Shown piece by piece: positions 1 to 49,358 of a DNA stretch of 64,000 nt. How positions within the stretch are numbered: the stretch's first letter is position 1; every line of letters starts with the position of its first letter. Location of the stretch: positions 36,146,001-36,210,000 of the forward strand of contig NC_086376.1 in the NCBI RefSeq assembly GCF_036588685.1, written 5' to 3'. The notes under the pieces were generated by a model that did no database searches, had not been told where the DNA came from, and saw only the letters and a program-made list of their open reading frames with translations. The DNA is from Mytilus trossulus (Eukaryota). The position numbers and the translations under genes were made by a program.

Positions 1-171
1 TATGGTAATTAAATCCCATACACTTATATTCTTTATCACATGCCCTAGCACAGTCATCCATATCTGCAGTATTGGATGCAGTGATCCTGTCACCAGGTAA
101 AACACTTGCACTGGTATTAAAATTTGGTCTAAACTGTTTGGTACATATTTCATGTATTTCCTCTTCAGATT
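1..171 (-). CDS. A2M-like exon 21 (partial), PAN/apple domain: ...ICTKQF...DMDDCARACDKEYKCMGFNYH
   Basis: C-x3-C-x5-C-x-G-F-N-Y core typical of PAN/apple domains; ttttctttag acceptor, phase 1; open to the window edge. Confidence 0.85.
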
Positions 172-3100
172 CTAAAGAAAACACAACAAAAATAATATTT
201 AGCTATTAGTAAGGCTTAAACAAACATCTATAATTAGTTGTGAAGACATGTCTGTCAAACTATAATGAAAAAAGTTTTTTTATTCTATGAAAACTTATAC
301 TGTGGATTCATTTATTTTCGTGGGTATCCATTTTCGTGGATGGTTGAAAACTTGCGTATTCGTGGATATTTGATTTCGTGGTTTTGACCTTCTCTGTCAA
401 AAATATATACCTTATCATATATTAAATGAAAAAAAACCAGACCTATAGGTATATTTGGATATTTTTATCTTCTGATACATTAGAGTTTACAGAAATTTTG
501 AGGTCCTGCTCATTTTACGTTTTGGTTTAGAAGCAACGCAGTCGCAATAATCACACATTGCTTTTTCAATAAATTCTTCACTCTTCATTTTGCCAGTGCT
601 ATTTGCCCCTTTTATAACTCTAATTATGAAGAAATTTCAATTTGAAAAGACAATAGATAATGTTTTATCAGATAATTGTAGTAACACTTCAGATAGTATC
701 ACTTTTACTGAGTTTACATTAATTAAAAACTGATTTGTCACGCTGACACTATGCTATGGAATTTCTTCTAATGTTTCATGCATGCAACCTTTCAATGTTA
801 ATGAGGTGGAAATGTCAAAATGATTGGATTTATTGCTCTTATATCTAACCTCAGTAGAAATACCACATTGAATAAATAGAGTTTAATTGGTTTGACAAAT
901 AGCTGATGCATTTACGACTGTGGTTTAACCGCATTAAAAATAAACAGGAACATTTGATTAGTTTCAGATACTTATAATATATATCCAGCAAGTAATAATA
1001 TCAACCTATTGATATATTTAATCTGAATTTCTCACCCTTTTCATATATCATGAAGCATGAAATAGTGACCTATTCCAGCGGCTCATCCCTACCAGTCATT
1101 ACATAGGAAGTGGCCCCCCCGAGTTCTCTGTATACAAAGCCTATTAGAAATATGTATTTCGTTGAACATTTGATTTCGTGGTTCACCTGTACCCACGAAA
1201 CCCACGAAAATTGGTATCCAACGAATAATAATGAATCCACAGTTATACAATACATCAAGTTTGTAGTTACACGTGGGACTAGATAAAGTGTGTCAAGTGT
1301 CTATATGTAACAAAATGTACAGTGTGTATGTGCTTGTACATGTAATATAATAGTGTGTTTGTAATTGTAATGTAACAGTGTGTGTGTGCTTGTACATGTA
1401 ATATAACAGTGTGTATGTGCTAGTACATGTAATATAACAGTGTGTTTGTGCTTGTACATGTAATATAACAGTGTGTATGTGCTAGTACATGTAATATAAC
1501 AGTGTGTATGTGCTAGTACATGTAATATAACAGTGTGTTTGTGCTTGTACATTTAATATAACAGTGTGTATGTGCTAGTACATGTAATATAACAGTGTGT
1601 ATGTGCTTGTACATGTAATATAACAGTGTGTATGTGCTAGTACATGTAATATAACAGTGTGTATGTGCTAGTACATGTAATATAACAGTGTGTTTGTGCT
1701 TGTACATTTAATATAACAGTGTGTATGTGCTAGTACATGTAATATAACAGTGTGTATGTGCTTGTACATGTAATATAACAGTGTGTATGTGCTAGTACAT
1801 GTAATATAACAGTGAATATGTGCTTGTACATGTAATATAACAGTGTGTATGTGCTTGTACATGGAATATAACAGTGTCTATGTGCTAGTATGTTTACTAT
1901 AACAGTGTGTATGTGTTTGCTTTTGTTGTTTGTATACCCAAGTATGTGCAAGGATCTGCAAAAAATAGAATATTTCCTTCAAATGAAGAGAATTTATTGA
2001 GTCATTTTCTAAAGAATGTACAGACCTTTGTTCTCCGGACATAGAGTGTCATATGAGTCTAGCATCATGGATACACTTTGTATTTCTGTAGATTCTTTAC
2101 AGTCATTCCAATAGGGCTCAATACAGGTCTTCAGGTCAGTAAATTTCCTTTAAAAAAAAAAAAAAAAATTTTTTTTTTTTTAAAGTCATATGAAACTTGA
2201 AATTAAAAAAAAAGTTTAATATGTTTCATATGCAAGGATCCGGAAATTTTTTCACCTAATTTCGGTCATTTTCATACAACTTAAAAGTTGATACCCCTTT
2301 TTAAAAGATGATTGCCAAAATCACATTACTGCATGAGACTCATTATGAGTATGCTCATACTCGATCGTCATGTTCGTAGCATCAACAAACTTGTTTCACA
2401 GTTGCATCGCATTTACTTCATGATTTGTCCTACCATTTTCCAAAAATTGATCAAGGGCAATTAAGGGAAGGCAGCAGTCTAAAAATAAATGATTTTAATG
2501 ACTCAAAACGATAATATTCCCAGTTATCGCTTACGTTTCTTTCGATTCTGAAGTCAAAATTCAAACCAGATATTCTGCGACAATACTAAAACGAACAATT
2601 CCGGACTCATTTCTGGGATTAGTTTTGTTTATCCAAATCGCAGGAAATCATCGGCTTTTTAATATTTTATCTTTAATAGGGTAAGAATATTAATTAAAAT
2701 AGTTGCACTGGCTTTATTTAGGATGAAATTATTTAAAATTTACGATTAATTGTCTAAATCTGTGGAAGAGAATTTCAAGCATGCGTATTACATAGTAAAC
2801 AAAGCACGTGTGTTAGAAGTAATAAAATATTTTTTTCTACAAAATTAAACCAAGTTTTAATTTGATTTTAAATCATAATTGACAATTGTCTGACTTGTTG
2901 AGTAATTAAATATTGAAGCCAGTTGGTATGGAATTTTTATTTCTTTATAATAATAGTTTGGAGCTTGTGATTAATTGCCAGGTGGGAATTACAATGAATT
3001 AAAAACACAGGTAAAGAGATTAACAATCATTAGCCAATAGCTCCCGGAGGCATTAATATAGTTATTAGGAGGGCCCTCAGGATTATAACACTTTATTGGA

Positions 3101-6100
3101 GTGGCAGTTTAATTACAGGAAATCGATAACTAAACAAAAATATGTTCAAAATGGTGATTTTGAAAGTCGATGTCAACGAAATGACCGAAATGATTAATGT
3201 AGAAAAATAAAATTTGACCTAAATCCCAATTAAAAGTTTAGGACATTATAGTTTCAGTTTAGGACATGACTGGCAAATATGACCGTTTCCGGGCCCTTGT
3301 TCATATGCTAGAATGGCTAAGTTTTACAATTAAGCAAGTAAATCAAGATCATGTTCTTGGATTAATTTGCACTTCTCATGAGTGTAAATTGGAACCACAC
3401 ATTTTTAATATCCTATGGGATAAAATTAAAATCCTACAGGATTTATAATCCTGTGCGATTTTCAAAAAAAGTGTTAAATCCAATATGATTTTTTTTATCC
3501 TATAGGATTATCATTAAGGACTTTCTCTCTCAAGTAGGATATTTTTTCTGCTACCAGATTTTTTTTCTCTCCCTAAGGATTAATCTTGTCCTGTTCTCAG
3601 TTAGGATAAACTTTTTCCTATAGGATTATTTTTTTCCCTCATAGGAATAAATTTGGATACATGTCATCTTAGATGATTTTGTCCGTTTTGTTGGTATTTT
3701 ACAAACGCTTACAATACGATTGTCAATGCAAATAATTGTGTAGTCCAGAATAAGGAACATCACAAAACAATAGGAAAGATATTCCTTTAATAGCAAATGA
3801 GTTCATAAGGAATTTATTTAGTCCTTAAGGGAAGTATATTTTTAATCTCATAAGGGATTTATATCCTGTAGAATATAATAATATCCTATGGAATTGTGAC
3901 TTTATCTTTTAGGATTTCTCATAATCCTGCAGGATTTTTAAAAATCCTATGGGAGAAAATATATTCTACAGGATTTTGTCACTGTTTTCACTCCAGTTGT
4001 CGAACCAGGCCAGCAACACCAAAAAAAATCAAAACTGTCAAGCATCATAAAAAAGAAAAGTTTATTTTGAAAACAAATGTCCTTTCTTTAAGAAACTTAC
4101 TTGCAAATTTGTAGCATAGAATTCCCTTCTAATTTAATCATTGGTGCCATACATTTAGACAATTCAACCATGTCACATTTACTTTCTGTAAATAGAAAAC
4201 AACATATGATTGATTTATATCAAGTTGGACATACTTATCTCTGGTGTAGAGTATTCTAAAGTAGGGGTCAAATAAAAAATGTGAATAAAAGGAGAACTAA
4301 GATTAATATGGCTTACATAAAAACCAAACGAAAGGTTTTAAAGTGCTTTAGATTAATTTTTACAAATAAAGAATTTGAGAAAAGACAAATAAAAAATGTG
4401 AATAAAAGGAGAACTAAGATTAATATGGCTTACATAAAAACCAAACGAAAGGTTTTAAAGTGCTTTAGATTAATTTTTACAAATAAAGAATTTGAGAAAA
4501 GACTAAGTTTTATTTAAAACAAAGGGAAAAGCTAGTTAATATTGCATTCAGTATAATATAATCTACAATTTGAACATTTTTCCTTTGATCTTAATGCATA
4601 TATTCTTAGTGTGAAACTGTTGACAAAAATGAAGTCATTATTTCTGTTCAAAATAGCATTGGAGAATTTTATGACAAAACATTTTAAGTTTATCTAACAT
4701 ATTGAAAGATTCAAAGTATCAGCCCTCAGGAAGCAGGTATCTGCCAGAGCAAATATTCTGGACATGTTAAAACACATCGCTAGCCTCAATCCTAGAGTTG
4801 AGGTATAATAATATTCTCCAAAAAATAGGACTTCATGAATAACTTATATTTTCCAGAGTACTTATTTTGACAAAACTGTGTAATAAATATTAAATACATT
4901 GATGATACAAAAATATATACACAACCTAAAACAAACTCAACTTACTACACATAGAATTGTATGTCAACTTACTACACATAGAATTGTATGTCAACTTACT
5001 ACACATAGAATTGTATGTCAACTTACTACACATAGAATTGTATGTCAACTTAGTACACATAGAATTGTATGTCAACAATTGTATGTCAACTTACTACACA
5101 TAGAATTGAATGTCAACTTAGTACACATAGAATTGTATGTCAACATAGAATTGTATGTTAACTTACTACACATAGAATTGTACATATCTTCTAAAGATGA
5201 TACACTGATGAGTTGTTCCTTACAGCTGGTACGATAAGGCTTGATACATTCGTCAAAGGTTTCATATGTCCTACACAAATAAAAAAGATACATTTAATCA
5301 TCTATAAAATACTTCTATCACCTAATGTGTGTCTCTTGATTCTGTATAAGCTGCTCCTAGATATTTCAACCTCAAAAAACAAGGCTGGGATTTGGAAGTT
5401 GCAAAAGTTGACAATTGAATGGAAACCATTAAGTGGTAGACCTTCGAAGGGACAGAACTCTTATAAACATTTGTATTTTAGTGTCAGATGTTTAATCGAA
5501 GATTCTGATTAATAGAAGTTATTTAAATTTTGTATAAAACTAAATATAACAAATGTATCACTAATAAATAAGAGTTATCTCCCATAGCCCAGGTCTAACA
5601 TACAATTACAATTTGGAAAGTTCATTTTTTTCCATCAGTTTCTCAACAATATAAAATCTACGGAAAAACAAGTTCATCTAAGCACTTTTCTTCCTAGTCC
5701 TTTCTAGAAGATATTCTGCTTTATAAAAGAAGCACAAAAAGATTGTAAAATAAAGTTTTTTTCTTCATTTTGTCACTGCAAAAAATGACATCTTATTTGT
5801 TCTCACATGTATTAGGTAGTATGGTCCTTTGATTTCATTGTATACACATCTTGTGTGAAAAGTGTCATTCTAGCAAATAGTTTTCATACATCTATATCAA
5901 CTGTTTTAAGGTGGATAGTTGTATCGTAGCAATCATACCACATTTTATCTTTATACTTATAACAATTAACCTCCAAAACTGAAATCTCTAACTAAAATCT
6001 TGGTAAAATTATAATCTGATTTCAGTGTGTTGCTGTGCAGTGCAGTTTTGCTCATTTGTAAAAGCGGAATGGTAACCTAGAGTTGATAACTTCTCCTTCT

Positions 6101-9100
6101 TTTGGTCTCCCATGGAGAGTTGTAACATTAACAATCAAACCTCATATTTTTACTTTAATATTTCACTCACTGGCACATCTCTTTAACATTTCCTGGGTTG
6201 ATTCGGGAGACTGGCATCATACAAGCCTGTAAAGCCATCATATCACATGGACTATTTAGGGCTATAAAAAAGAGGAAAAGAAACAGGTGAAATACTTAGG
6301 AAAAATATGTTTATTAGCCTTGTACATCTATGGCTGGACACGGCTAAAAAGAATGAAATAATCTTGTAAATTACAAAAGTTTATTTAAACATAGGACAAT
6401 TTTTAAATGGAGAGGGAAGATGGCGGGTGGGGGTACACTTAATATCAACTATCTAAAATTCAAACTGATAGATCATGTGCTAGGTACATAATGGATCTTT
6501 GGAACCCATATTAGGTATCCCTAATTCAATACACAGTAAATATCTGTGTAATATATACAAAGGATGCCTTCTTTATAGATGTTTGCAGCAGAACACATTT
6601 CTTGAATGAGCAAATTTGATTGTCCAGTGCAGATATCACATACAATGTTTTCTGAAAACTAAAAAAAACACTATATTTTGAATAACCAGGAAGCATAATT
6701 ATTTGGAATTGCTGTAATAAAGCATTCCAATACTACCTCTTCTCCCACATATTGACCAACCCTTTTATAGAGCATTACAATTTCTGGCACATCTATAAAT
6801 ATACAATTTTCAAAACAGTGGTCAAAAGTGTCAAATACGTTCAAAGTAGTCATAGTACATGTTTTTGTCAGTGTATTTTGAAGACTCATGGTTTATATAT
6901 GTTACAAGCATTTTTTTTAATTCAGGCATTATGTAAAATGACTAAAAATACCTAGTTATTTTGAGAAATGACTGAAATTTTGATACATAGTTCAGCAAAT
7001 TGCCTGTTCTGTCTCAGGTAACCTGTTAATAAATTACTTGTCATTGAGATGCATCTGACCAAAAACACTATATATTGCAAAGAAAATTACTTATCATTTG
7101 TATTAACTTGTTATCAAGTATTATCTTTTCGAAAACAAGCTTAACAAACTACTTACATTTTTCAGGCATTTTACAAAATACCTTAATTTAGAAAATGCCA
7201 GGAACTTATACATTAAAAGGTTATAAGCAATGAATTCCACACAAAAATAAAATACAATATTTTTTTCTTCATTCAAAAATCAATTAAGGCAGAATAAAAT
7301 AAATGGAGAATGTGTCCCAATGGACACAGATGATGAACCTGCTTGCATAAAACATTATAAAGGGACATAATTAAAAAACAATAAAAGTTACGCTATCCAA
7401 ATTTGTACTTCATCTGAGTTTTATGGAAATAAGTATTGTGGTACAGGTTTCATAATGTTTGGATGGGGCAAACTTAAGTTACAGAACTGAAACTAAAAAT
7501 TTGGCAAATTTTCCATTTGTAAAGGGGCATAACTTGATAAAAGTTTAAGTGACTCCACCAAGATTCAAATTATCTGCGTTTTGTGATAATGAGCATTGTG
7601 TATAATTTTCATAACTTTTAGTTGAGGCAAACTTAAGATAGAAAACAGAAACTAAAAATTATGTAATTTTTCCATTTATGAAGGAGCATAACTCAAGAAT
7701 GGTTAAAGTGACCCCACCAAAATTCATGTTGGATCTGTATTATGAGGTATAAGTATTGTGTATAAGTTTCATAACTTTTGGTAGAGAACCTCAAGGTAGA
7801 GAACAGAAACAAAAAATTATGCATTTTTTCTATTAATAAAGGGGCATAACTCTAGAACAGTTAAAGTGATGCCACCAACATTCAAACTTGTGCAATGTTT
7901 TGTGGTAATAAGCATTGTGTATAAGTTTCATGTCATTTAGTTGAGGCAAACTCAAGTTAGAGAATGGAAATAAATTTTAGGATGTCAGACGAGGGTAAAA
8001 CTTAATGCCCCATCCGCTTTGAAATAATTATGTTTTTATATTTACTGTTTATAACTAGTCTGGCAACAGCCTCCACTTCTCCAACTAGATTTTCAGCAGC
8101 ACAAACATAAATGCCAGCATCCTGTCTAGTAACATTTTCTAAGCGTAAGGTATGATTTTCTACTGTAGTTTTAGGACCGACAGTCTTTGTCGTAAAAGTT
8201 GAAGAAAAAACACTGATTTCCCCTCCCTCTTTCTTCCAAATTACTAGCAACCCTGCGTCTCCAGCAACTCCACATACAAACTCTACAGTCTGTCCTTCTG
8301 TGGTCGTAATATCATTAGGAAATCTCTGAATAGTAGGCTTTCTCATTACTAAAACAAAAAGAGAATCATTTTACTGGAATTTATTTTTATCAAATATAGT
8401 TCACAAGAGATCTTTTATCAATTTTGGTAGATTTATCCATAACTATAAAACAAAAAAGTTTTGAATTTGAAATCTTGACGATTTTGGATGTCAATTTCCC
8501 TGTCAGACATTTATAACTTTTAACACACAATTGATTAAAATTTTGGTTATATAAATTTAGAAACAGACCCAGGGTTTTTAAATTAGTACTTTTTTCTTGT
8601 GTCTTTTCACTGCACAGCACACATGAAATCCAACGAATGAGGTATTAATTTAGCATGGCCTAACCTATACCTTCCATTGGTATAAATTTTATTCCAAAAT
8701 ATTCAATAAATTAGGATCATGTGAATGCAATAAAGTCTCTATTCCTATAAAGGGGTATATTAACCTATATCTCTTTTTTTTCTTCTTAACATAGATTCCT
8801 CATTTTCCTCTTTAATAGATCGCTTCTCCTTTTGGGTCAAACCTGAAAAAAATCCACCAATTAAAAAAACTACTCCACTAGAAAAGGAATTGCAAGCTAT
8901 AAACTTTCATCAACCTTACCATAAAGTTATTTGATCTTTTTTTACAACTGCATTTAAAAAGAAAAGATTTTATGAGATCCAATTTTGGCCCCTTTTATAT
9001 ATTTCTGGCCAAATTTCATTTGGACTTTACTGTCAATTATCACATCGAATCATGTTTTAAACAAGTCTCTATTGTGAACATTTTCAAATCAGCATTCCTT

Positions 9101-12100
9101 TTTAGGAGTTATGACATAACAGCTATTAATATAAATGTCAGATTTTCATCAATTTCAATATACAAGTGGCTCTTGGTTTATTCATGGCAATTACATGTAA
9201 AGAAAATACAAGTATTTGCTAATTAGCAGCAAGTGCATTAGAGATTGAAGCTGAAAAGGTATCCTTCAGTATAGTATATGGGACAATACCCCTAATGCGC
9301 CTTGAAATGAGGAACACAAAAGTCACGTGTAAACAAAAATCTCTGTGTAGTGATATTTGACACATTTTTATGATAAACAAATGACTGAGCTGAACCATTA
9401 GTGTTAATTTAGAAAGTAAGGGAACACAGAATAAATGTGTAAAAACCATGGAGCTACTAAATGTGTTCAAAGTATAAAAATTTCAAAGAACTTATTGTGT
9501 TAAAAATGGGATTTTTTACCATGAGGAGCCACATCGCAAAAGGATACTCGGGGTTTGCTAAATTACGGAAAAAATGAATCACACTTCGTACCCTGAAAAT
9601 TTAACCACATATGTAAAAATGTCTCAGCTTCGAACCAAGCCATCATACATATACAAGTTTAAGATATGGGCTGAGCAACAGAAAAAAACGTTACCATTAC
9701 GGCCTATGGAGAAACAATTGCGCATATTGCCCCATATGCTTACATGAGTCTTAAAACCATATTTTAGAAAGCTCTGTTTGTAGTTTGATTTGACTGTAGA
9801 TAATGAGAAAAACGTGACAAAAATTTTATAGGTCTGCCTGGTAATCACAAGGTCAAAAAGAGGTAATTAACCTGTATATTTACCTCCCCCTCCTTTTAGG
9901 GTTTTATAAGAAAATTATAATTGATAGTATTTACCTTTCTAATTATTCCATACTGTGTTCTTCATTCTTTATTCATTCTTCATGCATTCATCATTCCTGT
10001 TAGACTCTAGGGTACCAGTTAGTTCTAATGCACTGCATATTCTGATATTTACCATATACTTTTTTGCACATGAATCATGCATCAGTTTGAATTTTAGATA
10101 AGTGTGAATACTAATGAGTTAACATAATAGGGTATTCATACATTTACATAATAATAATGTAATAGATAAGGATGCATGACGATAAAAGGGATATTTTCAA
10201 CAAAACTCATGACACTGCAAATTCAGATATTATTGCAAGGTTTTATTAACATAAATAATGACACTGGGTGAGTACTGCAATAATAAAACCTCACATCATG
10301 ATATCTATTGCATATTCTGTGTACAATTTTCCTAATTGCAAAAATATTGCATCTTTGTATATATTTCAAAAAAAGGTATCAATAAATACAAGCAAAAATT
10401 TCTGAATTTACAGTATTCAATTATATACCATTTTTTATACCCTCATTTAAGGAGCATAAAAATTTTGATAAAATCTTGAAACACATATTTAAAAGAATTT
10501 CAAGAACTGAAAGTTAGAAAGACCATGCCTTTATTGAATGGAACTACCATAAATCACACTTAAAAAAAAAAGTTTGTCGAAAGGTATCAAGCTTATTTCG
10601 TTTGTTGATTAAATATGAAATATGTATTACTATAATTTTTTGAAAATCAATTGCAGAACAGTTTTTAATATTTATAGTATGTAACTAACATAATTGTAAA
10701 TCTTAGTATACAGTAAGAATCAAATGTGTTATTTTTGTTGGGGAGTTCCTGTCAATATAGTACTTGTATGGTAAGACAGTACATGATTATTATATCAGTA
10801 TAAACAAAGATAAATATACATATAGAAATGAGTTATTAAACATTAACTATACCCTAATTCATCATAATTGAATAGGTACACAAAAAACATACCCATAGTT
10901 TTGTCTTCTCTTGGTTCTGGCTCCTGTTAAGATTAACATATTATTATTTCAAATATAATTTACTGTAATTTCGAGAATATATATGTATGCTCTTTAAAGC
11001 ACTGGAAAGAACTACATGTATTCACTTGAATGGCATTCGATCTATGTAATGTGTTATGGAGTGAAAAATTTGTGGGTATTTACAAAACAAAACCTTTTAA
11101 AATCAAGCAAAATGGAAGGGATTTTTTTTCTGTACGCTAAAATTAAAGCGGATCTGACCTCATTTACAATCATCAAAGGGATTAGTTTAAAAAAATACCA
11201 ACTTTGGTAAAGACTGATTTCATTGGAAGGAAATGATATATATGTTAGGGAAATAAAACTATTTATATGTTTTTAAAACCTGTTACTTTGAAATTGTGTT
11301 ACCTAAATAGATTAAACAAAATACCTTTATTCTGATGTAAGCGTAAGAAATGCAATTGGGAACAGATGATGACCCCGCTAGCATATAATGTTGTTAAGGG
11401 ACATAACTAAAGAACTGTAAAAGTGATACTACCAAAATTTGAAATTAAACAGGAGTTTTGTGGTAAAAAGCATTATATATACATTTCATAACATTTAGTT
11501 GAGACAAACTTAAGTTAGAGAAAGGAAATGAAAAGTTGCTGAATTTTTCCCATTTGTAAAGGGGCACAACTCTAGAATGGTAAGAGTGACCTCACCAAAT
11601 TTCAAAATGACATGTGTTTTGTGATAATTAGTAATGTGTATAAGTTTCATAACATTTGGTTGAGGCAAACAAAAGTTAGAGAACGGAAATCAATTTGGGA
11701 CATACGTACATACAGACAGACAGACATACTTGCGTACAGACGGACAAGGGTAAAACTTACTGCCCCTTCCACTACATTAGCATAAAATTGTAAACTTATT
11801 TGAAATACAACTGAAAAGGTTATACACACTGTCGAAGGCAATATTGACCTATAGATGGTCACATATACATCATTTGGTTACTGGTGGATAGTTGGTCTCA
11901 TTGGCAATCGTATCACATCTCCCCAGTTTATGTCTTTATTTTGAATGTTACATAACTTACTGGTTTTACTGTCGCATCATCTCCATCTACAATAAAATAA
12001 GATACTTAAGAACACAGATTAAAGCATGGCAAAATATATCCCATCCAATACTGTATAATTTCAAACTGATACTATTTTTTATTGAACTGTAAATAATGTA

Positions 12101-15100
12101 ACTATAGAAATTTTTAGAATATTGTGTAAATCATCAACTCTCGATTGTAACAAACGCTTTAATTATTTGAATTTATCATAACATTTGTATTTCTATGTGT
12201 TCTCTAATGGACATTCCTTGATATTTGATGTCCTGGCTTTGCCTATCTTTGTATACAAAGCCTATTGAAAATATTTTATTTGTTGAGCATTTGAATTCTT
12301 GATTCATCGGTTTCCGCGAATATTGGTATTCTACGAATAATATTGAATCCACAGTATCTCTTTTAATTTAGTGAAGGTTATCAATGGCTGGGTTGAATCA
12401 TCCAATAATCTACTAATTCTTTTTAGTTTTTCATCGTTTTTGTTGTTGCTGATTCAGATGAGTTTTAAGATTAAAATTCTTAAACAGTTCAGGAAAGTAA
12501 GAGATAAATAAAATAATATATATATACAGCATACCTAAACTAATGGTAATGTTCTCTGCTTCTGGTTTAAAGCCAAGTTCAGGATCATCTATACAAATAT
12601 ACAAGTTATTTTATTAATATAATGAAATATTTTCTTAGGATAAAAGAATTCAAAATATGTTCCTTTCCACAGTAATTTATTTAAGATATAAATTAATATT
12701 TAAACAATGAAATCAGAAAAAGGAACCAGTGTTATTTTTAAGTTGATGATAATGATGAAAGGTTGTTTATTATCGAATGAAATGCATTATCAGGTGATGA
12801 AAATAACTAGAGGCTCTAAAGAGCCTGTGTCGCTCACCTTCAGTCAGAGATATAACTCTATAGGGTTATTACAGAAAATAACTTGCGTGTGTTATTACAG
12901 ATACTTTTCCTTAAATTTTCTAAATCTGTAATAACATATGTTTGTTATTTGTAAAATTCTTTAATCTATAGTGGACTCTAGGGAACTCTTGAGACTTTGC
13001 GCAGAAACTAAATGCATAGCCTTGCTAATTAATTTTTAAATGGAATTAATACATTTTTGATTAACCATGGTTAATCAATGAGACAAGGATATTTAGGAAT
13101 TAACTTAGCTGTGATAACAAGGCTTAGTTATTATAGGAATGTAACTTATTATATAAGACACTTGGGAATTACTGAGAAACTTGCGCAGAACCTCATTACA
13201 TGCTCTGGTCATTATTTCTTACAATAAATTAAAATACATTGTAATTAAGCATGATTTATGTCTGAGCAAATGCTTTGAAGTGATATAGAGAAGCTGTGAT
13301 AACACCCTTTAGTTATTACAGGCATATTTTTTCTGTAATAACATATAGGTGTACTATTCAAAATTGGAATACTATGAACTGTTACATCTTTCAATAGTTA
13401 AGTATACATAAAGAAAATAGTAATATCAATAGAACTTGTATACATTTTAACTAAACTTATGAAGTATATTGTCCCTTTGAAACATGTAACATACATATGT
13501 TATCACATTTCTTTGATTTTTTAATCCACAATAACAAATGTATGTTATTTTCCTGTAATAACCCTATAGAGTTATATCCCTGACTGACCTTGGTCTATGT
13601 GAATATTAAACAAAGGAAGCAGATGGATTCATGACAAAATTATGTTTTGGTGATGGTGATGTGTTTGTACATCTTACTTTACTAAGGGCTGTTCCAAAAA
13701 ATACTATGTCCCCCCCAAGGAAGGCATTTTTTTTTAAATATTATGTGGGTGGTTGTATTTGAAATACCAAAATGCAAAGGGAGTGCTGTTCTAATTAAAT
13801 TTTATTTCTGTGGGTGGTGGGGGTTAAAAAAAAAAGTGCCGTCCCTGGGGGGGACATAGTATTTTCTGGAACAGCCCTAAACAGTCTTGCTGCTTACAAT
13901 TATCTCTATCAATAATGAACTTGGCCAAGTAGTTTCAGTGGAAAATGATGATAAAAATTTACAAATTTTATGAAAATTGTTAAAAATTGACTATAAAGGA
14001 TAATAACTCCTTAGGGGGTCAATTGACCATTTCAGTCGTTTTACTTATTTGTAAATCTTACTTTGCTGAACATTATTCCTGTATTCAGTTTATCTCTATC
14101 TATAATAATATTCAAGATAATAACCAAAAACAGAAAAAATTCCTTAAAATTACCAATTCAGGGGCAGCAACCCAACAACAAAATGTCCAATTCATCTGAA
14201 AATTTCAGGGCAGATGGATCTTGACCTGATAAACAATTTTATTCCTGTCAGATTTGCTCTAAATGCTTTGGTTTTTTGAGTTATTAGCCAAATCCTGCAT
14301 TTTACCCCTATGTTCTATTTTTAGCCAAGGCGGCCATCTTGGTTGGTTAGCCAGGTCACCGGACACATTTTTTAAACTAGATACCCCAATGATGATTGTG
14401 GCCAAGTTTGGTTTAATTTGGCCCAGTAGTTTCAGAGGAGAAGATTTTTGTAAAAGTTAACAACGACGACGGATGATGGACGCAAAGTGATGGGAAAAGC
14501 TCACTTGGCCCTTTGGGCCAGGTGAGCTAATAATATGATGGGATTAGAGCTAGGGTTTGTACAAAATCATAGTACGTCACATCAAGTTGCATATGAAAAA
14601 GAGTCCAAAAAATATTCCCTTGAATAAGACAGTTGTATAGGAAATTAATCCTATGTTTCATTGCAGTAAAATAATTTCTGTGTCATAAATATACATCTTT
14701 AGCGTTTCAAAGCACCATTCTTTTTTATTTGTTTTTTCTATAGAATATTTTGGAAACTTGATGTTAAATGCATGAGTTTACTAAAGCTTGAACACAGGGA
14801 AAAAGGGATGGCAATTTAATCGGTTAGTTTCCAGTGACTGGGAAATAAATGGGTCATCAAAATACACATCTTACCATAATAGGGTATAGGATCAATGGGG
14901 TATAACCATGTTGGTCTAGGAGGTGGTGTGTATGGATCAAGTAACATGTCCTCTGGTAAACTGTCAAAGTTTACAGCATCATGACTTTTGAAATGATGTG
15001 TAACATGTGTATGATGCACCATATGTGACTTGGATAAAACCTGAAATATAAAATTACAATAATTATTAAAACTGATCATTAATAGGTCATTTCCTCTTCT

Positions 15101-18100
15101 TGATATTCCTTCGTAAAAGTTAAATAAGACTGAATTTAAGTCCTCATTGTAATGTTCTGTCAAAATAAGTTAAATAAGACTGAATTATGATATTAAGAAA
15201 GTCAAAAGACTAAAGGAAATTATTGTGTTCCTCCATTTATAAAGGGCATAACTCTTTAATGGTGACTTTCTGTTAAAATTTGAACTTTGTCTGCAAGGAG
15301 CAGCAGGGCATACAAATCTGAACTAAAATGTAAAATAACTGTACAAAAAAGAATGTGTAATGAGTATAAGATAAGCAACTTACCTGTACAAAAAACTTGT
15401 ACCGAGTGTCCAGTGGTGTGGAATATAAGACCTCTAAATCAAAAGTGGATCCACATTTAACTTTGTTTTCCACTGATGGTATGTGGATATAACTATTAGA
15501 TGGAGAGAACCATTTCTTAGCATTGTGGTAAGAACTTGGCTCGTACATCTTAATAATATGATGATATCTGCCATATGGTTGGAAGTACTTGGGTGCCCTT
15601 GCCTACAATAATTTTACATGTGAAAAAAGTAGTCATACAAAATTTTATTATTGTATAAAGTAGATTTATGTACCAAACATAAGTTTTTTCTTAAAAAAAA
15701 AATATATGTTGTTGATACAGAAATTTTCATATCAGTGATATGAAATAAGCAGACGGTCACTTACTTTGGTATTATTAAACTGATCTGTTACCTAGTTGGT
15801 AGTGAAAGACATTTAAAATTGATGACATACAAGCTTAAAGCATTAGTTTTACTTGTATTGATATTTTGTGATATTTTTCTACCAAGGACCATACTGTCAC
15901 ATGCATACAGACTTCATTACAAATTTTAGAATGCTTTTCACCGATTTTATGTGTTGTTTTTTTTAAATTATCACCTCCTTTGAAATAATTTAATCAGTAA
16001 TGTTTCAGAAAATAAAAGAGATAAATGCAGTATTTTTTTTCTTTATGTTACATGTCAAAGAGCCAAAGTTGTATGCCAAATTTTACCACAATCTGTTACA
16101 CACCCCATTTACTGTGTTCCATTACAATATAGTAAGTACAGCTGTTGTTTATAGTTGGATAAAATCCTTTGCAGACAAAAAAATGACAAAAAACTTACAT
16201 TAAAACTTAGTCTATTAACATCTTTTGGTAAAGTTTTTATAGCAAACTTCACAAGTCCATCATCATCACTGGTAAAATTTCTCTTCAGATAAAACTCTGG
16301 ATCATAATTATCGGCTTTTATCTCAATAAGTTCTCCGGGGGCAGGACTTCCATCAGGCTTAGTTACTTTTACCTAAATAAATAAAACACATAAAACTATT
16401 ATATTACGTCAATAAATTTCTGGAAGTGTTCATGGATAGTATGTTTAGAATGTTATGATCAAAGTACTATATTTTGTGTATCAAAAAAGGTAGTGATCAG
16501 CCTTGGAACATTTAGATATCAAGTCAGTCCCATAAGGTTTTGATTGCATTTTATGCAATCTTTACCTAAAAACTGAGTAACTCAAAGAATATCACATCCC
16601 TTTATGGAGAATTTGTATTTAGTAGGACCAAAAACTTAACGAGAAATGAGTTCATGGATGCCTGTCACCTAAACCCCTGGAACAAAAAAAGAAAATACAA
16701 AAAAAAACAACATCCAAGTTTTTTAAACCATGCTATTTGCAAAATGAAAACTAAGTTCTAAGAAACATGGAATATCTTAGGCACATTATGTTAAAGGAAT
16801 TAGACTGTTCTCATTAGGCCATTTGTCTTTCCTTACAAATTGTTTCAGACTCTGTTCAATAATTACTAGAACACACCCGCTAAATCGCGAGCAAATAAAG
16901 CTTGTAAACTGTTGTAGGATGATTTTTTGTAAAAGATATTTTGACTGGAGAATTTCATATAAGGTATCAAAAAGCCGTCCGTTATGTGTTTCCTTTCTGT
17001 TAAATTCGATTATTTTTTTGTGTTTCTGGCCTTATGCCACAATTATTCTTTCTCTTTGGTACAATGCATTTTTTGGTAAAAGTCAAATTAAATTAAAAAT
17101 TTGCACCGCTTCAAACATGAAACAAATGAAACTGCTCAAGTTATATACCATTATTATTAGATAATAAAATGTGCTTGTAGAACAATACATCAGTGCTTAC
17201 CTTTTGAAAGCCCTATTAACATGCCAATGGTAGGATTTGAATCTCGTATAAATGACTAACGCTCATTTGAGGGATGCTCTGAGGGGGCCTGATTCTGAAA
17301 TCCCGGGCTTAAAAACATGAAATCTCGAGGTGCGTATTGTAACGAAATTCATATCCCGTCATCCCGAAAGAATAAAAAATATTCCCGCATCCCGTAAAAA
17401 TCAGTTCCGAAATCCCGAGCTTAAAAGCACCAGATCCCGACGTTCCAAATAAGTCTTGTCTCCCGCTTATCTCTACCCTACTTTCATTTTGGCCAAATCA
17501 CTACTTTCACTTTCAACAATAAATTTGTATGCCCCATCTATGGGCATTATGTTTTCTAGTCTGTTCCTCCGTTCGTTTGTTAGTCCGTCCTTCTGTCCGG
17601 CTTCAGGTTAAAGTTTTTACTCTCAACAATAAATTTTCATGCCCCATTTATGGGAATTATTTTTTCTAGTTTGTTCTTCCGTCCGTCTGTCCCGCTTCAG
17701 GTTAAAGTTTTTGTCGAGGTAGTTTTTGATGAATTTGAAGTTCAACCAACTCGAAACTTAGTAAATATGTTCCTTATGATAATATGATCTTTCTAATGTT
17801 AATGCCAAATTAGAGATTTTACCCCATTTCACGGTCAAAACATAGCAAATGATAGTGCCGATCGGATGTGGCATCTGTATACTATGGACACATTCTTGTT
17901 TTTCATAGGGCCTGTGTCGTTATTTAAGAGACGATAAGTGAATGACAAAATTATTGTGTTTATTTTCACACGGCCTGGGTCGTTGCTTACAGTTGGGATT
18001 ACGAAAGTGGCTTGCATGAATCTTAAATAAACATGATAATATAGGCTATGCCTTTGTCGTTATTTACGTGACGATAAGTGTATGACAAAAATGATTGTGT

Positions 18101-21100
18101 TTATTTTCACACGGCCTGGGTCGTTGCTTACACTCGGGACAACATATAACGATTCAGGCAATGTGAAAATGGCTTGCATGAATCTTAAATAAAACATGAT
18201 AATATAGGCTATGCTTGTGTCGTTATTTACGTGACAAAAAAAAACATGATAATTTAGGCTATGCCTGTGTCGTTATTTACGTGACGATAAGTGAATGACA
18301 AAAATGATTGTGTTTATTTTCACACAGCCTGGGTCGCTGCTTACACTTGGGACAACATATAACGATTTAGTCAATGTGAAAATGGCTTGCATGAATCTTA
18401 AATAAAACAGGATAATATAAGCTATGCGTTTATTACGTGACGATAAGTGAATTACAAAAAATGTTTTTTTTATTTTCACACGGCCTGGGTTGATGTTTAC
18501 ACTTGGGACAACATTCTTATATAACGATTCAGGCAATGATAATATAGGGTTTGTAGTAATGTAAATTTACAAAAATAAACGGAAGAGGAAGTTATCTATG
18601 AATAAAAGCCGGGGTGATGACGGACACATATCCGGACTTCTTTTTTTTCCGTTTTTCTCCCAAAATAACCGAAACTGAATAATCATAAGAATGGATGACA
18701 AATGCGACTATGCATGGTACCTATAGGACATACAGTCACAATGATCAATCTATTGAGAAAGGAGGAGAAGCGACACCAAAAATGAGGTCTTCTCGTTTAA
18801 TAGTATAGATACAGAATGTAAGTTGAGCATAACACAATTACTAATGCACCTAACAAATGTTAACATGACTTACTCTAGCATAATAAGGGAATGCATCCTT
18901 AAAATATCCATGTGTGTCATCTTCAAATTTCAGTTTGAGAGCTTCAAATGTCATTTCTGGTCCCTTCACTGTCCCATTCAGTGATATACCTATAAATAAG
19001 AATAAAGAATACTTTACAGTATCTCATCACAAGGAAGTTAATTCTGTCAACTCATAGCTGTGGATTGTTATCCATTTCCAGTAAGGAAAGATATTTCTTT
19101 AATTACACTATACAGATTGATATAAATATTTTATATGAAGAATTTCTAGCTTGCAGATCCAGGTGAAATAAAATTAAGGGGAAATAGCCATTTATAATTC
19201 TGGGTTGAAATGATATTTAGTCTGCCACACACGGATGATAAGTTTCACTCAGATCTGAGCTTTTTTGTGAGTAATGTGTTCACTGTATATACATCTAGAC
19301 TATAATAAGATTCATCTATCAAGTCAATAAGAAGAAAATAATATTGTATTAGATAACCAGTCTTATAATATCTGTCTACCTGAAGTTTGTCTGACAGCAG
19401 CACATAAATAACCTTCTATCCTTTTTATACATACCTAGAGTCTCATCCGAGTTATACATACCTGTAGCCTGCTCTGTGACTGTAGCATTGATCATCAAGT
19501 TTCCATATCTACTGAAGTTGGAGGAATCTAACATAAGTTCTGAACCTTCTACCATATATGTCTCACAGCCATCAATCTGTAAAACAGGATTTAGAACAAC
19601 TTGACAAATTTGTATTTTTTTGGTATAGGTGCAAAAATTGTGGACAGAAAGAAGGAAGAAGCTTCCTGGTGTCAATATAGTCATTATGCATCTCACATTA
19701 TACTTAAAGTCATAAGAAACGAGTGACCGGAGAAAATTAATGTTCTTCCAATTCTTAAACCAATGCATACAAACATCATAAACTTAGTCTTCTGTGCTCG
19801 AATTTATCATTTTTTTCGTGTAAATTTCGTATAATCGTCAATTTTTTTTTCAATCGGTCAGTGTTGTTGTGAAAATATGGCAGGTAATTAAAGTTCGTGT
19901 TTTGAAGCCGAAGTTTAACGATTGTCACCTGTTTGTCAACAATTGACGAAAAATAAACAAAAAAGCATGGAATTTGAGCACGTGTTTAACATGTAAATTC
20001 AGAAAATAGTTTATTTTAAGGACATCCATGCGTATTGTGGTCACCAGATTTTTACGAGATGGGTCACACTGAGGTCACCTTGAATACGGAAAATATATCG
20101 GGGGAATTGTTTGCTGGAAGGAAGCAATTCAAATAAAGTAAACTTCTTCTAAATATGAATAAATTAAAGACTTTTCTTAAGAAAAAAGTATATGAACATA
20201 AGTTTTACAATGAAAACTATCCATTGAGTTATAAAAAACATATGCATTATTTTTTTTGATTTGAGGTTTCTAATGACTTTAATCAAATATTGAAATAATC
20301 ATGAGAGTTTTTTTTCTAATCAGTATGGGTAATTGCTGTTTTTCTTGTATTTTACAGTTTTTTTTATCTGTTTGGTCATACAATCAGGCATGGTTACCTT
20401 TTCGGGCATCTCATATTATTTACCTTTTTCAAGAAAATATTCTAAATGGTGTAAAACCATTGTCAAAATAGAAAAAAATACTTTTATTGTCTAAAGTTGT
20501 CAAGATAAATAGGAGATAGTGTGTTTCTTTTTATTAATTTTTTTTCAAAGGTCTCTCATGTTTCATAATAATTTACTATAATCATGAAACTGTTTTTTGT
20601 AAAAATTTGCACTAAAATCAAAACCAAAACTTGTGCACATGTACAAATATTCTACCCACATGAAATTGATAACATTAAAACTGGAAAATTGTAAAGCAGG
20701 TAATACATACTATACAATATAATACAATATTTTTATTGTCAATCAATGATGCTGTAAGAGGGCAGTATAATTACAAACAATTTATTACAATGATTAACAC
20801 AAAAGAAAAATTAAAACCCCAGATAATGTATCTTATGATTGGCTGACATTGTTTTGTTTATCATCTCATAGTAGTGTTGGATAATCGGTTGAAATTACCA
20901 ACCCATTATCTATTACAATCAGTTGACAGCAACCAACCGACTATCGGTTATAATCGGATCATAATACCTTGCCCTTTTTTCTTAAAGGAAATCATGCATT
21001 TAGTCTCATTGTACTTGTCAAATGTGTATATTCCATATCATTGCAGAGTTTATATTTTCATATTTGATTTTTTGTTTCCTTTCAATATTCTGGCATACGG

Positions 21101-24100
21101 TCTACTAAATTATAATTCTGGTACCTTTGATAATTATCTATTCAGCAGTTAAAACAATGAATTAATAAGAATCAAGATTCATATTGAACCTATTTTATCT
21201 CATAATTACAACATTAAATACCAACAGTGACACTAACATTTCTAAATTTCAATGGTGTAACTCAGAAAAAAATTTCAATAACATAGCTGTATGAACATTT
21301 GAAGAACTTTTAGAAATTTAAAATTAACAGAAAAAAATAAAACAATGCATTTGTATTATAACATGTAACAAACATGGGTATTAAGCCAATGTCTGTTAAT
21401 TCGTGTAGAACACTTTTATTACTTTTGTAATCATTATTTTCTTTCAATTGTGTCATTCGTGCGTCTGAACTTATTATTGCAAGAATGCGTAATTTTTACA
21501 TAGTTGCACCGTATCCGATTCGTGATTCTTATATTCATAAATGGCGGACAAATTTCAGAAAATTTACAAAAGTAAACGATGTTTGGCAAGCAATTTGGAA
21601 AGGAATATGACGTTTTTGATGCTACAAATGGATAACACATTAATAAAAGGCAACTTGCAACACGTTCTAATGAAGCAACGAAATTATTTTGTCTAAAATC
21701 AGAACTATTCGTACGCTCTCAAGTAACAAGTACAGGTTTTGAAAGAAAGTATTTCATACAAAGTTATAAATCTTAGATAACATTCCATCAATCTGCAAAT
21801 GCTTTTGTCACGTTCATAAAGAAGGAAATTGGTTATTTCTTTAATTATTGGATGTTTGACATTGTTACTGTCATCAACTGATATTTTTTGTTAATATTGT
21901 TTGACTGCGCATATAAAATGCAAACAGTAAACGGACTGGAAGTTGATAAGCTCAAAGTCCGAAAACTTTAACGACAATGGATTGAACAAAATCCCAATCG
22001 ATTATCGACATCACCAGCCCCAACCAACTGATTTCCAACTTATTCCGATCATCGGAACAACACTATCTCATAGACATAATTTAGTCATGTGACCGTGATG
22101 TCATCAATGTTTTTTCATGGTTTACTCCGGTTTAAGTTGGTATTTAGAATTAAATTATAGAAAACAAGTAACTGCGAGCTACTGCTCACTGATGATACCC
22201 CCGCCGCAAGTGGATAATATTAATAGTGTAAAAATATGCAAGTGTTCTGTAAACAGGAAGTTGTCAAGTGATCAATCTGAAAACGCATTACATGGTATAG
22301 CTGACTTAAATAAACCCTGAAACCAAATTTCAGAAATCCTTGTATTGTAGTTCCTGAGAAAAATGCGACGAAAAATATTCATGGGACGGACGGACGGACG
22401 GACAGACAGGTAAAACAGTATACCCCTCTTTTTTAAAGCGGGGGTATAATAATAACTGTATTATTTTTTTGTCTATTTGAAATAACATAATGTTATTTCG
22501 AATAGACAAAAAAGTTACATAAAAAAATATGGTACACACTTGAAAGTAACCCGCTACATGTGTTATTCAGTGTGCATCATATTTTTAATGTTATTTCTTC
22601 ATAGACAGAAAAAAAATTACAGTTATTCCTTAAATTATTTTCAGCTGTCTTTGAATACCATTAATTGTGCCATAAAATTCAAACTTGGCTATGAATGATT
22701 GACTGGGTCAGTAAATTGGCATTATTTATCCCTCTCAGCCCAGTGGCTGATCCTCTCAGCCCAGTGGCTGATTGTTAAATAACATAGATGTTTTAGAACT
22801 TCAAGATTCTCATAACCCATAAGCCTATAATGTAAAAGCTTGTCAATATATTCTTGTCTAGATTTTAAAGAAACTCACATCCATTATTCTTGTGGCACAT
22901 GGTCTCTCTGAATTATCACTGCTGCGGTAATAATAAAAGGATGGACCGCTATCTTGGAAACAAACAGATAATTCTACTTTCCCTTTCACTGGTTTGCCAT
23001 ATGTGTACCTAAATATAAAGTAACATACATAAGTTTTGTTTTAACATCTTTAAAACAACATGTTCAATGTAATAAAATGGTTGAAACTCAGTAATGAAAT
23101 TTCCGTTTTAGTATTACAGAAACATATTTTTCAATGAAAAAACTAAAATAGAATGGTGAAAATGTCCATGGGCTACCGATGATGCCCATGCTTGCATTTA
23201 ACCTTATAAAGGGACATAACTCAAGAACAATAATAGTAACACTATCCAAATTCATACCTGATCTGAGTTTTGCACTTGTAAAGGGACATAACAATAGATA
23301 GTTAAAATAACACCACTCAAATTCAAGCTTGATCTGTGTTTTGAACTAAAGCATTGTGAATAAGTTTCATAACATTTAGTTGAGCAAATCAAATAAGAGA
23401 GTTCACAGAAATAAAAAAAAAGTCTACCATCTTTCTATTTGTAAAGGAGCATAACTCTTGAAAGATAAAAATGACACCACCCAAAATTCAAACTTGATCT
23501 GCGATTTGTGGTGATAAGAATTGTGTGTAAGTTTCATAACATTTGGTAGTGGCAAACTAAAGTTATGGACTTACAGTAAACAGACTGATGGACGGACAGA
23601 CAGACGAGGGTTAAACTTAAAGCCCCCTCAGCTATGACAAGGGCATACATATCAATGAAAACCCTATTAATTTTTCAATGAAAGTCTGAAAAGGTTACTT
23701 AATGAAGTCAATACTCACTTGGCACAAACTGTTCCTTGAATAGTTTCAGTTGTAGGTAATAGAAATGTTGGAGCTGTGATTGTGACTTCATATTTGGGCA
23801 ACACTAAAATAAAAATATACAAAATCAATTGTGATTTAAAAAATTACTCATGAGTTTCCGACTGCCCATTCTAAAGATTGAAATTAAAGCATTTCTTTAA
23901 TGTCAATTTTATATCATAAGTATAGCAAAACCACATAAAAATTATACCAAATCCACAACTTATAACTATAGGAAGCAGATGCAGAAGATTATGATTTAAA
24001 TACCAAATTTCAACAGCATATTATTATCTTCTGCATCTGATGGAATGATTTAAGATAATAAGTCAACACCCTCAAGTGTGTAATTTGGCAATCATACATT

Positions 24101-48000: not shown

Positions 48001-49358
48001 CAAGTTTTGCCTTAAGATTCTCTGTTTTAGCCTGTTTTATGCTTTCAAGTTTGGTATCGAGTTTCTTTATTTCAGCGTTTTTCACTTTCTTTAGCTCTGT
48101 TTTAATATTCTTTGCTTCAATCTTTTGTACCTTCTGACTATCAGCTTTGAGTTCCTTTGTTTTAAGTTGTTTTATTTTTTCGAGCTTAACATTTAGTTTC
48201 TTTGTTTCATCATGTTTTATTGTCTTAAGCTTGTCGGCTAGTTTCACTTTTTCAACTTTTTTCATTTTATCAAGCAGATTGTTAAGTTTCTTAGTTTCAA
48301 CCTTTTGTATCTTCTTCGGCTCATCTTTTATTTTCTTAGATTGAGTTTCCTTTATTTTTCCAATCTTCAAATCGAGTTTACTGGTTTCAGCTACTTTCAC
48401 TTTCTCAAGCTTTTTAAGAAGTTTTTTGGTTTCTATCTTTTTAACTTTTTTTAACTTAGCAATAACATTCTTTATTGCTGGTTGTTTTAATTTTATCTTG
48501 ATTGGTTTAACAATGAGTTTCTTAGCTGCAGTTTTAAGGTTTATCTTTACATTCACTTTCTTTTTCTTTGGATCATTCTTAATTCCTTTTTTTGTATCAT
48601 TCTTTTTCTTTGTTCCATTACTAAGTACGTTTGTTATAGTCTTAGTTTTAATCTTCTCTTTCCCAGACTTATATTTAGTGTCTTCCTTTATCTTCTCTGT
48701 CTTTGTTACTTTACCATTCTTTTTTGACTTAGCTTTAGTCACATTCTTTTTGCTTGACTTCTTTTTACTTCCTTTCTTGGTCTTCTTTGAATTAGCTTTA
48801 GTCACTTTCTTTGTGCCTGACTTAGATGTTGCTTTGGTGGGTTTGTTTATAATTTTTTTCGATTTCTTCACTTCTTTCTTTTTTATCTTGGTTGAAGTTG
48901 CTTTTGACTTTGGATTCTTTGATTTTACTACATTAGTTACCGTTGCCTTTTGAGAAACAGTGGTTGATTTGGGTTTCGGGGTTATTTTCTTTTGTAGTTT
49001 TTTAATCTCCGTTTGTAGGGATGTCAGTGTTTTATTTTTCTTGCTTGTCTGACCATTCTTAGTTATTACTACCTTACTCTTCTTCCCAGTAGAACGTGGT
49101 ATTGTTGGGATTCCTTTCGTGATTGCCCCCTTTTTAAACTCTATAGGTTCGATCGCTTTTATCTCAGATTTTCCATCCGCCTTAGAGTTGAGCAGCTGTA
49201 AAACTTGCGATTTGATTTTTTCAGATGGACCAGTCGTTGGCTGCTTTGGACCTGCCGAAGATGTACCAGTCGTTGGCTTCTTTGGACCTGCCGAAGATAT
49301 ACCATTGGCTGTGCGTGTATGTCGTAGAAGATTTTGCTGTAGTCCGTATCCTGGCCAT
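42092..49358 (-). CDS. 7267-nt terminal exon of the Lys-rich protein
   Basis: Unbroken frame. The ORF-track start at 48871 is a GTG; the frame stays open for 162 more codons up to the splice acceptor. Confidence 0.92.

Follow-up and report, generated by a model that had tools for sequence, protein, structure and literature searches.

We analysed a 64,000-nucleotide window of the Mytilus trossulus genome (assembly GCF_036588685.1, contig NC_086376.1, positions 36,146,001 to 36,210,000 of the forward strand), to which all coordinates below refer. Its minus strand carries the 5' part of an alpha-2-macroglobulin (A2M)-like gene, in which a run of small exons, here called the cassette, is inserted into the macroglobulin domain MG5. 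The original prediction, made from the DNA letters alone, held that every inserted module is bounded by phase-1 introns, as in exon shuffling, and that each could be skipped in frame to give variable isoforms of an immune protein. Our comparison of exons, domains and transcripts supports a shuffled origin for the cassette, and alternative splicing of one block within it.

Gene model and site of insertion

Exon-by-exon matches to database proteins of Mytilus galloprovincialis, Mytilus edulis and Mytilus californianus, whose boundaries were concordant, gave a 23-exon model running from 33969 down to 1 on the minus strand (as do all the exons described here), with AG and GT at every junction in the window and a stop-free product of 915 residues. 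Exons 1 to 13 (14875..33969) encode a signal peptide, MG1 to MG4 and the first MG5 strands, with Pfam matches to MG2 and MG4. A search with exon 12 returned Mytilus proteins at 93-95% identity, and exons 11-13 are 92-100% identical to the Mytilus A2M-like proteins P0002, P0005 and P0006. Here P0005 is the M. edulis and P0006 the M. californianus protein, P0003 and P0007 are models from Mytilus coruscus, and P0004 is a more distant homolog. The near-identical full-length homologs carry MG2, MG3, MG4, MG5-6, A2M, TED and the receptor-binding domain in that order, and the best PDB match is human A2M (E 1.7e-233). The window stops before the thioester region, for which a GCGEQ motif is present in P0002, P0004, P0005, P0006 and P0007; likewise the bait lies beyond the window and was read on the homologs, where a variable bait segment is found in five of five. 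Searches for ANATO and NTR domains gave no match in P0002, P0004 or P0005 at E up to 10. Judged by the domain order of its homologs, MG1 to MG8 plus a bait, the predicted product is an A2M-group thioester protein.

At the cassette, the match to human A2M is broken between human residues 480 and 521. In a predicted structure the flanks on either side together rebuild MG5 (human A2M 451-563, Z 10.5, root-mean-square deviation (rmsd) 2.7, 106 residues aligned); this first model was poor overall, with a mean predicted local distance difference test score (pLDDT) of 54, and was drawn on for MG5 and the PAN domain alone. The sequence break and the model show that it is MG5 that the cassette splits and not the bait region, which follows about 200 residues downstream.

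Exon 13 (14875..15040, phase 0 to 1) encodes an MG5 strand and the proline-rich start of the loop, and the phase-1 intron at its 3' side is the host intron of the cassette. The 12 introns before it have phases 2, 1, 1, 0, 1, 1, 2, 0, 1, 0, 0 and 0, in agreement with the mixed phases first reported for the upstream A2M exons. Human A2M presumably has an intron of the same phase at the equivalent place. For the snail BgA2M, Table S3 of PMC7016707 gives a phase-1 intron there without module exons; this placement was anchored on shared 53- and 85-nucleotide exons, by length pattern and not by sequence, and the snail counterpart of exon 13 is 175 nucleotides long and ends in phase 1. Because the host intron is in phase 1, in common with the snail, the outer limits of any in-frame insert are forced to phase 1, so that the inner limits alone are informative. 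It also follows that only 1-1 units, those with phase-1 introns at both ends, can be added, duplicated, broken or skipped without disturbing the frame.

Exons, phases and domain limits of the cassette

Window positions 5185 to 16400 were compared with the contigs of four of 24 listed sequencing runs (X1, X2, X3 and X7), for which 15 joints of 419 were listed; Cys2 and PAN, described below, lie outside the compared stretch. The joints 14875>12588, 12535>11986, 11961>10923 and 10893>6261 and both ends of the Ig exon are directly visible in RNA.

The cassette opens with a 54-nucleotide linker exon (12535..12588, 1-1), which is joined to exon 13 in runs X1, X3 and X7 (14875>12588) and in which 13-17 of 17 residues are conserved in the five homologs that hold it. 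Two micro-exons of 26 nucleotides (11961..11986, 1-0; RNA joints at both sides in X1, X2 and X7) and 31 nucleotides (10893..10923, 0-1; also RNA-joined) together form a further 57-nucleotide 1-1 unit (1-0-1) between the 54- and 78-nucleotide exons, which is reduced or absent in P0004. The optional 78-nucleotide exon (8765..8842, 1-1) has a weak donor and encodes an acidic linker with a polybasic RRKKR motif, a predicted furin site; it is found in P0006 and P0003 and is missing from P0002, P0005 and P0004. The optional 303-nucleotide exon that follows (8046..8348, 1-1) encodes an immunoglobulin (Ig) domain of the I-set, Ig1 (Pfam E 6e-18), identical to P0006 at 76 of 100 residues.

A second Ig exon, Ig2 (6677..6792), which is 24% alike to Ig1, is broken in this window: the phase-1 acceptor at 6792 and the first 37 codons are kept, and a stop and unrelated sequence follow. 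Of the remnant's 37 residues, 29 are shared with Ig2 of M. californianus P0006, which is intact, and 26 with P0007, and contig 23 of X7 departs from the window sequence exactly at 6677. In the region just after the break (6338-6677), an X7 contig matches 6455-6677 and then carries other letters, which suggests a deletion or rearrangement in this haplotype next to the break.

Two cysteine-bearing (Cys) modules come next, and these are diverged tandem copies of one another. Cys1 is made of a first exon at 6171..6261 (phase 1 to 2; database protein matches and an RNA joint) and a second at 5167..5270 (phase 2 to 1), whereas Cys2 comprises exons at 4101..4185 (1 to 2; database protein matches) and 2026..2147 (2 to 1; 40 of 40 residues shared with P0002 and P0005). 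From the end of the second Cys1 exon a 27-nucleotide tandem array has grown (4937-5182), which repeats the exon's donor six times; one of these, a second in-frame donor after 5095, is open and would add 24 residues. The last exon in the window (1..171) starts in phase 1 at 171 and encodes a PAN/apple domain (Pfam PAN_1 and PAN_4, at or above cut-off level), its 3' end lying beyond the window. A further piece at 9972-10034 (minus strand), which matches the M. coruscus model P0003 at 18 of 21 residues, was rejected as an exon: it contains stops here and is absent from P0002, P0005 and P0006, and we read it as intron sequence caught by the gene predictor.

The 23-exon model bears out the phases first proposed, in that the 54-, 78- and 303-nucleotide exons are each 1-1, both Cys modules are 1-2-1 exon pairs and the PAN exon starts in phase 1. 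The wider statement that every module is phase-1 bounded holds insofar as all units open in phase 1, and was incomplete in that it overlooked the 26- and 31-nucleotide pair and the broken Ig2. Phase-1 introns flank Ig1, Cys1 and Cys2 on both sides and PAN on its 5' side, the 3' side lying beyond the window. Furthermore, exon limits coincide with domain limits: the I-set profile (positions 1-90) falls inside the 303-nucleotide exon, each two-exon Cys unit corresponds to three predicted helices, and PAN begins inside the last exon. Given how common phase 1 is in this gene, finding all four independently defined domain boundaries in that phase has p about 0.03; for the module boundaries, seven of seven in phase 1, p is about 0.002, the modules having been partly delimited after the fact.

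It could be argued that this pattern is uninformative, with phase 1 simply common in the gene, the outer limits forced and the insert grown by duplication and exonisation. Taken over all introns, phase 1 accounts for seven of ten in the cassette and five of 12 upstream, which is not a significant difference (Fisher p 0.18); the linker exons are of low complexity, like the long loops of relatives, and Cys2 and the extra Cys1 described below are local duplicates. However, exonisation cannot produce Ig or PAN, both of them widespread mobile folds; the Ig, PAN and Cys units each start at a phase-1 intron of their own (the four domain limits above); and folded domains are absent from the loop in the closest non-mytilid relatives. 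We therefore hold this explanation to be very unlikely for the cassette as a whole, although it may apply to the 54-, 57- and 78-nucleotide linkers.

Splicing of the cassette

The joint 10893>6261, which skips the 78-nucleotide exon, Ig1 and the Ig2 remnant, was present in all four runs, and Ig-bearing contigs occurred beside this skip form, with record 2 of X1 fitting 8046-8348 exactly and carrying other letters at both sides. The bin of the 78-nucleotide exon held about 79 bases at the depth of the Ig contig in X1, 76 in X2 and 58 in X3. Depth figures, which are not expression levels, were 48 (X1), 298 (X2), 3.85 (X3) and 1532 (X7) for the skip joint and 2-14 for Ig, the two being similar in X3 (2.3 for Ig). 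Low-depth cover of the Ig2-remnant bin in X2 and X7 was indistinguishable from repeats and was set aside. Among database isoforms, isoform X3 of M. californianus holds the block with two Ig domains, and isoform X4 of M. edulis and isoform X5 of M. galloprovincialis lack it. Alternative splicing is supported for one block only, the 78-nucleotide exon plus Ig, and it is to this block that the idea of variable isoforms from modules skipped in frame can be applied. The idea that each module is skipped fared less well: skipping of the 54-nucleotide exon, the 57-nucleotide pair or Cys1 is seen in none of the 15 joints listed out of 419.

The same results bear on a fully combinatorial scheme, in which every 1-1 unit would be skipped independently in each animal and the repertoire would shift with infection. 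All of the units are frame-neutral and one block is alternative, and the number of Cys modules differs between P0002 (two) and P0005 (three), where the X7 joint into an extra module, with a depth figure less than half as large as that of the entry joint, makes optional splicing possible. Against such a scheme stand the absence of other skips from the listed joints, a contig of X2 that runs unbranched from the 54-nucleotide exon into Cys1, and the retention of Cys1, Cys2 and PAN in all five homologs that reach the region; the Cys difference is also at least partly genomic, the window having a single Cys1. Neither is the layout Dscam-like, consisting as it does of one intact Ig, one broken Ig and two Cys units in series, with no array of paralogous, mutually exclusive exons in the cassette. 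Such a repertoire is, in our judgment, improbable.

A clearer source of isoform diversity in this gene appears to lie in tandem alternative bait exons, a known mechanism. The bait segments of the five homologs are alike at only 11-21 of 44-56 residues, whereas the flanks of the bait in P0002 and P0005 are alike at 79 of 80 and 117 of 120. At least four unrelated bait segments occur among P0002, P0004, P0005, P0006 and P0007, and M. coruscus P0007 carries three in tandem, of which the second resembles the bait of P0006 and the third the bait of P0002. This comparison of homologs points to mutually exclusive alternative bait exons downstream of the window, as the sections of PMC7016707 and PMC10183022 at hand describe for thioester-containing proteins (TEPs) of snail, scallop, shrimp, fly and mite.

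Module number across Mytilus

A comparison of module number across species, which the original prediction had put forward as a check, shows that it differs between Mytilus genomes for Ig and Cys alike. M. californianus P0006 has two Ig domains, where this window has Ig1 and a broken Ig2. Cys modules number three in M. edulis P0005, where a pair of them share 54 of 64 residues, and two in P0002, as against one Cys1 and one Cys2 in the window. The X7 joint 6255>5187, whose depth figure is less than half that of the entry joint, leads from the second exon of Cys1 into a further Cys1-like first exon, and the new letters match the P0005 junction. In the more distant P0004 the linker is shorter and is accompanied by two Cys modules and PAN, with neither Ig nor the polybasic site; Cys1, Cys2 and PAN are the parts common to all five homologs that reach the region. 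These Ig and Cys differences fit the frame-neutral gain, duplication and breakage of 1-1 units. Together with the coincidence of exon and domain limits and the tandem origin of the Cys copies, they support the shuffled, modular origin that had been suggested for the cassette, with the phase-1 rule itself partly forced by the host intron.

Two candidates for additional modules were rejected, namely a V-set Ig and LDL-receptor part in P0003 and a kringle/sushi part in P0001. Neither has a match in the window, and both are likely to reflect chimeric models; the fusions in P0001 and P0003 are joined to the A2M N-terminal half at phase-1 points of the cassette.

Folds of the modules

The PAN model matches the N-domains of plasminogen and HGF (Z 10.5 and 9.8). 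When the Cys pair was folded alone, three helices were predicted per unit (mean pLDDT 80), and the top matches among 48,161 chains were the N-domain of RGMB (Z 8.2, rmsd 2.2, 64 residues aligned) and RGMC (Z 7.7), followed by unrelated rows at Z 6.8. RGM_N (PF06535) was also the top Pfam match of the Cys pair, in register, at E 0.011 and 16.4 bits against a cut-off of 24.2. However, identity to the RGM N-domains is 9-12% and the Z scores lie within the range reached by common helical bundles. Whole-protein Pfam scans gave no RGM_N match, with P0004 giving a weak neuritin match instead, and the ESM Atlas points the Cys module to DUF19 at 0.82. Foldseek returned no match for either structure model at E 0.001, and a phmmer search of the Cys pair against the PDB gave one match, judged to be chance. 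We regard the Cys module as a predicted three-helix bundle that resembles RGM-N, which is a lead only and implies no family membership. In the part of PMC13234300 available to us, RGMA is described as binding BMP2.

The MG5 loop in other invertebrate A2Ms

A search with the MG5 region among 50%-cluster representatives gave 585 matches, of which the best 150 were kept; 157 proteins were examined, and 123 had both flanks, 119 of them non-mytilid. The loop has a median length of 38 residues in the non-mytilids compared with 305-544 in mytilids. An RxK/RR motif is present in 14 of the 119 non-mytilid loops, where shuffled loops would lead one to expect 1.7 and other stretches of these proteins 2.9; it also occurs in eight of the 12 loops of at least 100 residues, the proteins being related and the counts not independent. 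In Figure S3 of PMC7016707 the human MG5 loop is shorter than those of horseshoe crab, spider, snail and freshwater mussel, and the longest is that of the freshwater mussel, which is rich in proline and glutamate and contains a basic cluster.

Among 14 relatives selected for long loops or odd size, a Pfam scan found a folded domain in the loop of three: an Ig after RKKR in P0047, an FN3 in P0061 and a TIL after RRRR in P0093. In another relative, P0033, the C-terminus carries three Ig domains. Quick-search trees built on the flanks, one from 50 of 72 eligible rows and one from 24 rows, place the mytilids among relatives with unstructured loops, and no folded domain was found in the loop of their closest non-mytilid relatives. 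A grouping of mytilids with P0047 and P0061 was rejected by the approximately unbiased (AU) test (p 3e-4), as was one of mytilids with P0093 (p 7e-5), the tested groups having been named after the first tree was inspected. On these trees, the filling of the same loop by Ig, FN3 and TIL domains apparently occurred independently of the mytilids.

Other features of the window

The intron before PAN holds a 31-nucleotide satellite of about 20 copies (1319-1919), and high-copy transcribed repeats lie in cassette introns at 13587-14520 and 7418-7964. Further along the window, a stop-free minus-strand frame at 42092-49381 spans 2429 codons and encodes a very lysine-rich protein, with repeats of 15, 34 and 117 residues and no Pfam match; it is probably one giant exon of a neighbouring gene. 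A minus-strand open frame of 175 codons, also without a Pfam match, lies in a GC-richer stretch at 62685-63212.

Discussion

Our preferred reading, to which we give a probability of roughly two in three, is that shuffled modules have come to fill the MG5 loop at an old phase-1 intron, with splicing either including or omitting the furin-Ig block. In this model the modules were likely imported into the host intron by exon shuffling. One mRNA, present in all four runs, goes from the linker into Cys1 and onward without the 78-nucleotide exon and Ig, and another contains Ig. Inclusion of the block would result in a two-chain protein, cut at the predicted RRKKR furin site, whose chains would be held together by MG5, since each side of the insert contributes strands to this domain, and cleavage would free Ig-Cys-Cys-PAN as an N-terminal arm. 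Mounted on a thioester protease trap, the modules likely serve as appendages that bind glycans, cells or growth factors, which would give them a role in targeting or cargo, and the protease range would be set separately by the alternative bait exons downstream.

Several observations, in addition to the non-significant overall contrast in intron phase, weigh against this reading. The runs were selected because they contain the Ig exon, that they are RNA is a tool's guess, and levels cannot be read from contigs. Run X7 covers the Ig exon with zero depth in the bin of the 78-nucleotide exon, so that the block may not always travel together. With Ig2 broken, and the 3' partner of Ig1 not visible in the contigs, inclusion in this haplotype may be unproductive. 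The Ig and PAN folds are widespread, but neither these nor Cys could be traced to a donor gene: the donor search for Ig1 gave only vertebrate sialoadhesins at 25-39%, and among the retained matches no protein other than A2Ms carries the Cys module. Finally, P0047, P0061 and P0093, on which the parallel filling of the loop in other invertebrates is based, are database predictions and possibly chimeric models.

Some of these points lead to an alternative that shares the shuffled origin and differs on regulation alone, and which we consider a tentative possibility, short of even odds. Here the furin-Ig1-Ig2 block would be working in M. californianus and M. coruscus and in the process of being lost in the lineage of this window, with inclusion a leak. 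Included transcripts would be partly destroyed at the Ig2 stop, the working protein would have a fixed Cys-Cys-PAN insert, and the 1-1 phases would merely make the loss harmless. The truncation of Ig2 at 6677, the lack of the block in P0002 and P0005, the weak donor of the 78-nucleotide exon and the low depth figures of the Ig contigs relative to the skip joint in X1, X2 and X7 (again, not expression levels) are all in keeping with decay, as is an identity of Ig1 to P0006 of 76%, compared with 95-96% for exons 11-13. Conversely, Cys1 and PAN, which are clearly used, are equally diverged from P0006 (74-79%), Ig1 is open across its 303 nucleotides with an I-set signature, the polybasic motif is kept, both Ig ends are exactly spliced and the depth figures of the two forms are alike in X3.

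Extending our preferred reading of shuffled modules and a spliced furin-Ig block, one might suppose that the MG5 loop of invertebrate A2Ms is a general furin-gated port that is filled independently in different lineages, that the mussel gene combines chain forms with baits as a matrix, and that the RGM-like modules possibly carry BMP-family signals. We think this doubtful. If true, such a matrix would combine what the protein binds with what cuts it, and splicing would switch the protein between a single chain and two chains with the Ig arm free.

Set beside known systems, the full-length homologs of the mussel protein share the MG1-MG8/TED layout and the GCGEQ motif with invertebrate A2Ms such as those of the snail (BgA2M), Hyriopsis cumingii and Limulus, and with the human structure. 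The mussel gene has the same exon-length pattern as BgA2M and differs by the module exons in MG5. In those A2Ms the loop is an unstructured linker, while in mytilids it reaches 305-544 residues, with Cys, PAN and Ig on separate exons. The TEPs with spliced baits (BgTEP2, BgA2M, BgCD109, the Chlamys farreri TEP, Drosophila TEP2, shrimp A2M-2 and mite DgA2M; the available parts of PMC7016707 and PMC10183022) resemble the mussel gene in their alternative-exon isoforms. Their exclusive exons are paralogous baits, however, whereas the mussel cassette places unrelated folded domains in series within MG5. MCR offers another A2M-family member with a foreign module inserted, in that case LDLa (the same portion of PMC7016707), although there the module replaces the bait, the thioester is mutated and the protein has a transmembrane end, whereas the mussel homologs keep both bait and thioester.

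Class 1-1 shuffling as set out by Patthy, and in what we could draw on of PMC8001218 and PMC7502776, likewise involves phase-1-flanked Ig and PAN domains, secreted proteins and tandem duplication of modules. It usually takes place between domains, whereas the mussel modules sit within another domain. Mobile class 1-1 modules seldom have an all-alpha fold (PMC7502776, and likewise the available text of PMC8001218), and the Cys module, being predicted all-alpha, is unlike most of these.

No paper that we found describes the cassette, the insertion of domains into the MG5 loop or its cleavage by furin, although this absence is weak, subscription journals being thinly covered; nor do the available portions of PMC12939704, PMC8960428 and PMC13069473 describe the loop as a site of insertion. 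Public databases already contain the proteins themselves, automatically named, and the phase-1 pattern is by itself textbook material. What is specific and testable is a loop that is recurrently filled, an optional exon with a cleavage site and an RGM-like module. If the Ig block is merely decaying, the case reduces to an unusual lineage-specific domain architecture.

A2M is usually seen as structurally conserved, with variation confined to the bait. The mussel gene shows a second variable site inside MG5, at which whole domains have been gained, duplicated and lost among close mussel species, and the same loop has seemingly been filled separately in other invertebrates. The cassette would represent recent, datable exon shuffling into the middle of a domain, with a module predicted to be all-alpha, and it offers a testable idea of how a broad protease trap might be targeted. 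Should the proposed furin switch hold true, a thioester protein would have its chain structure set by splicing.

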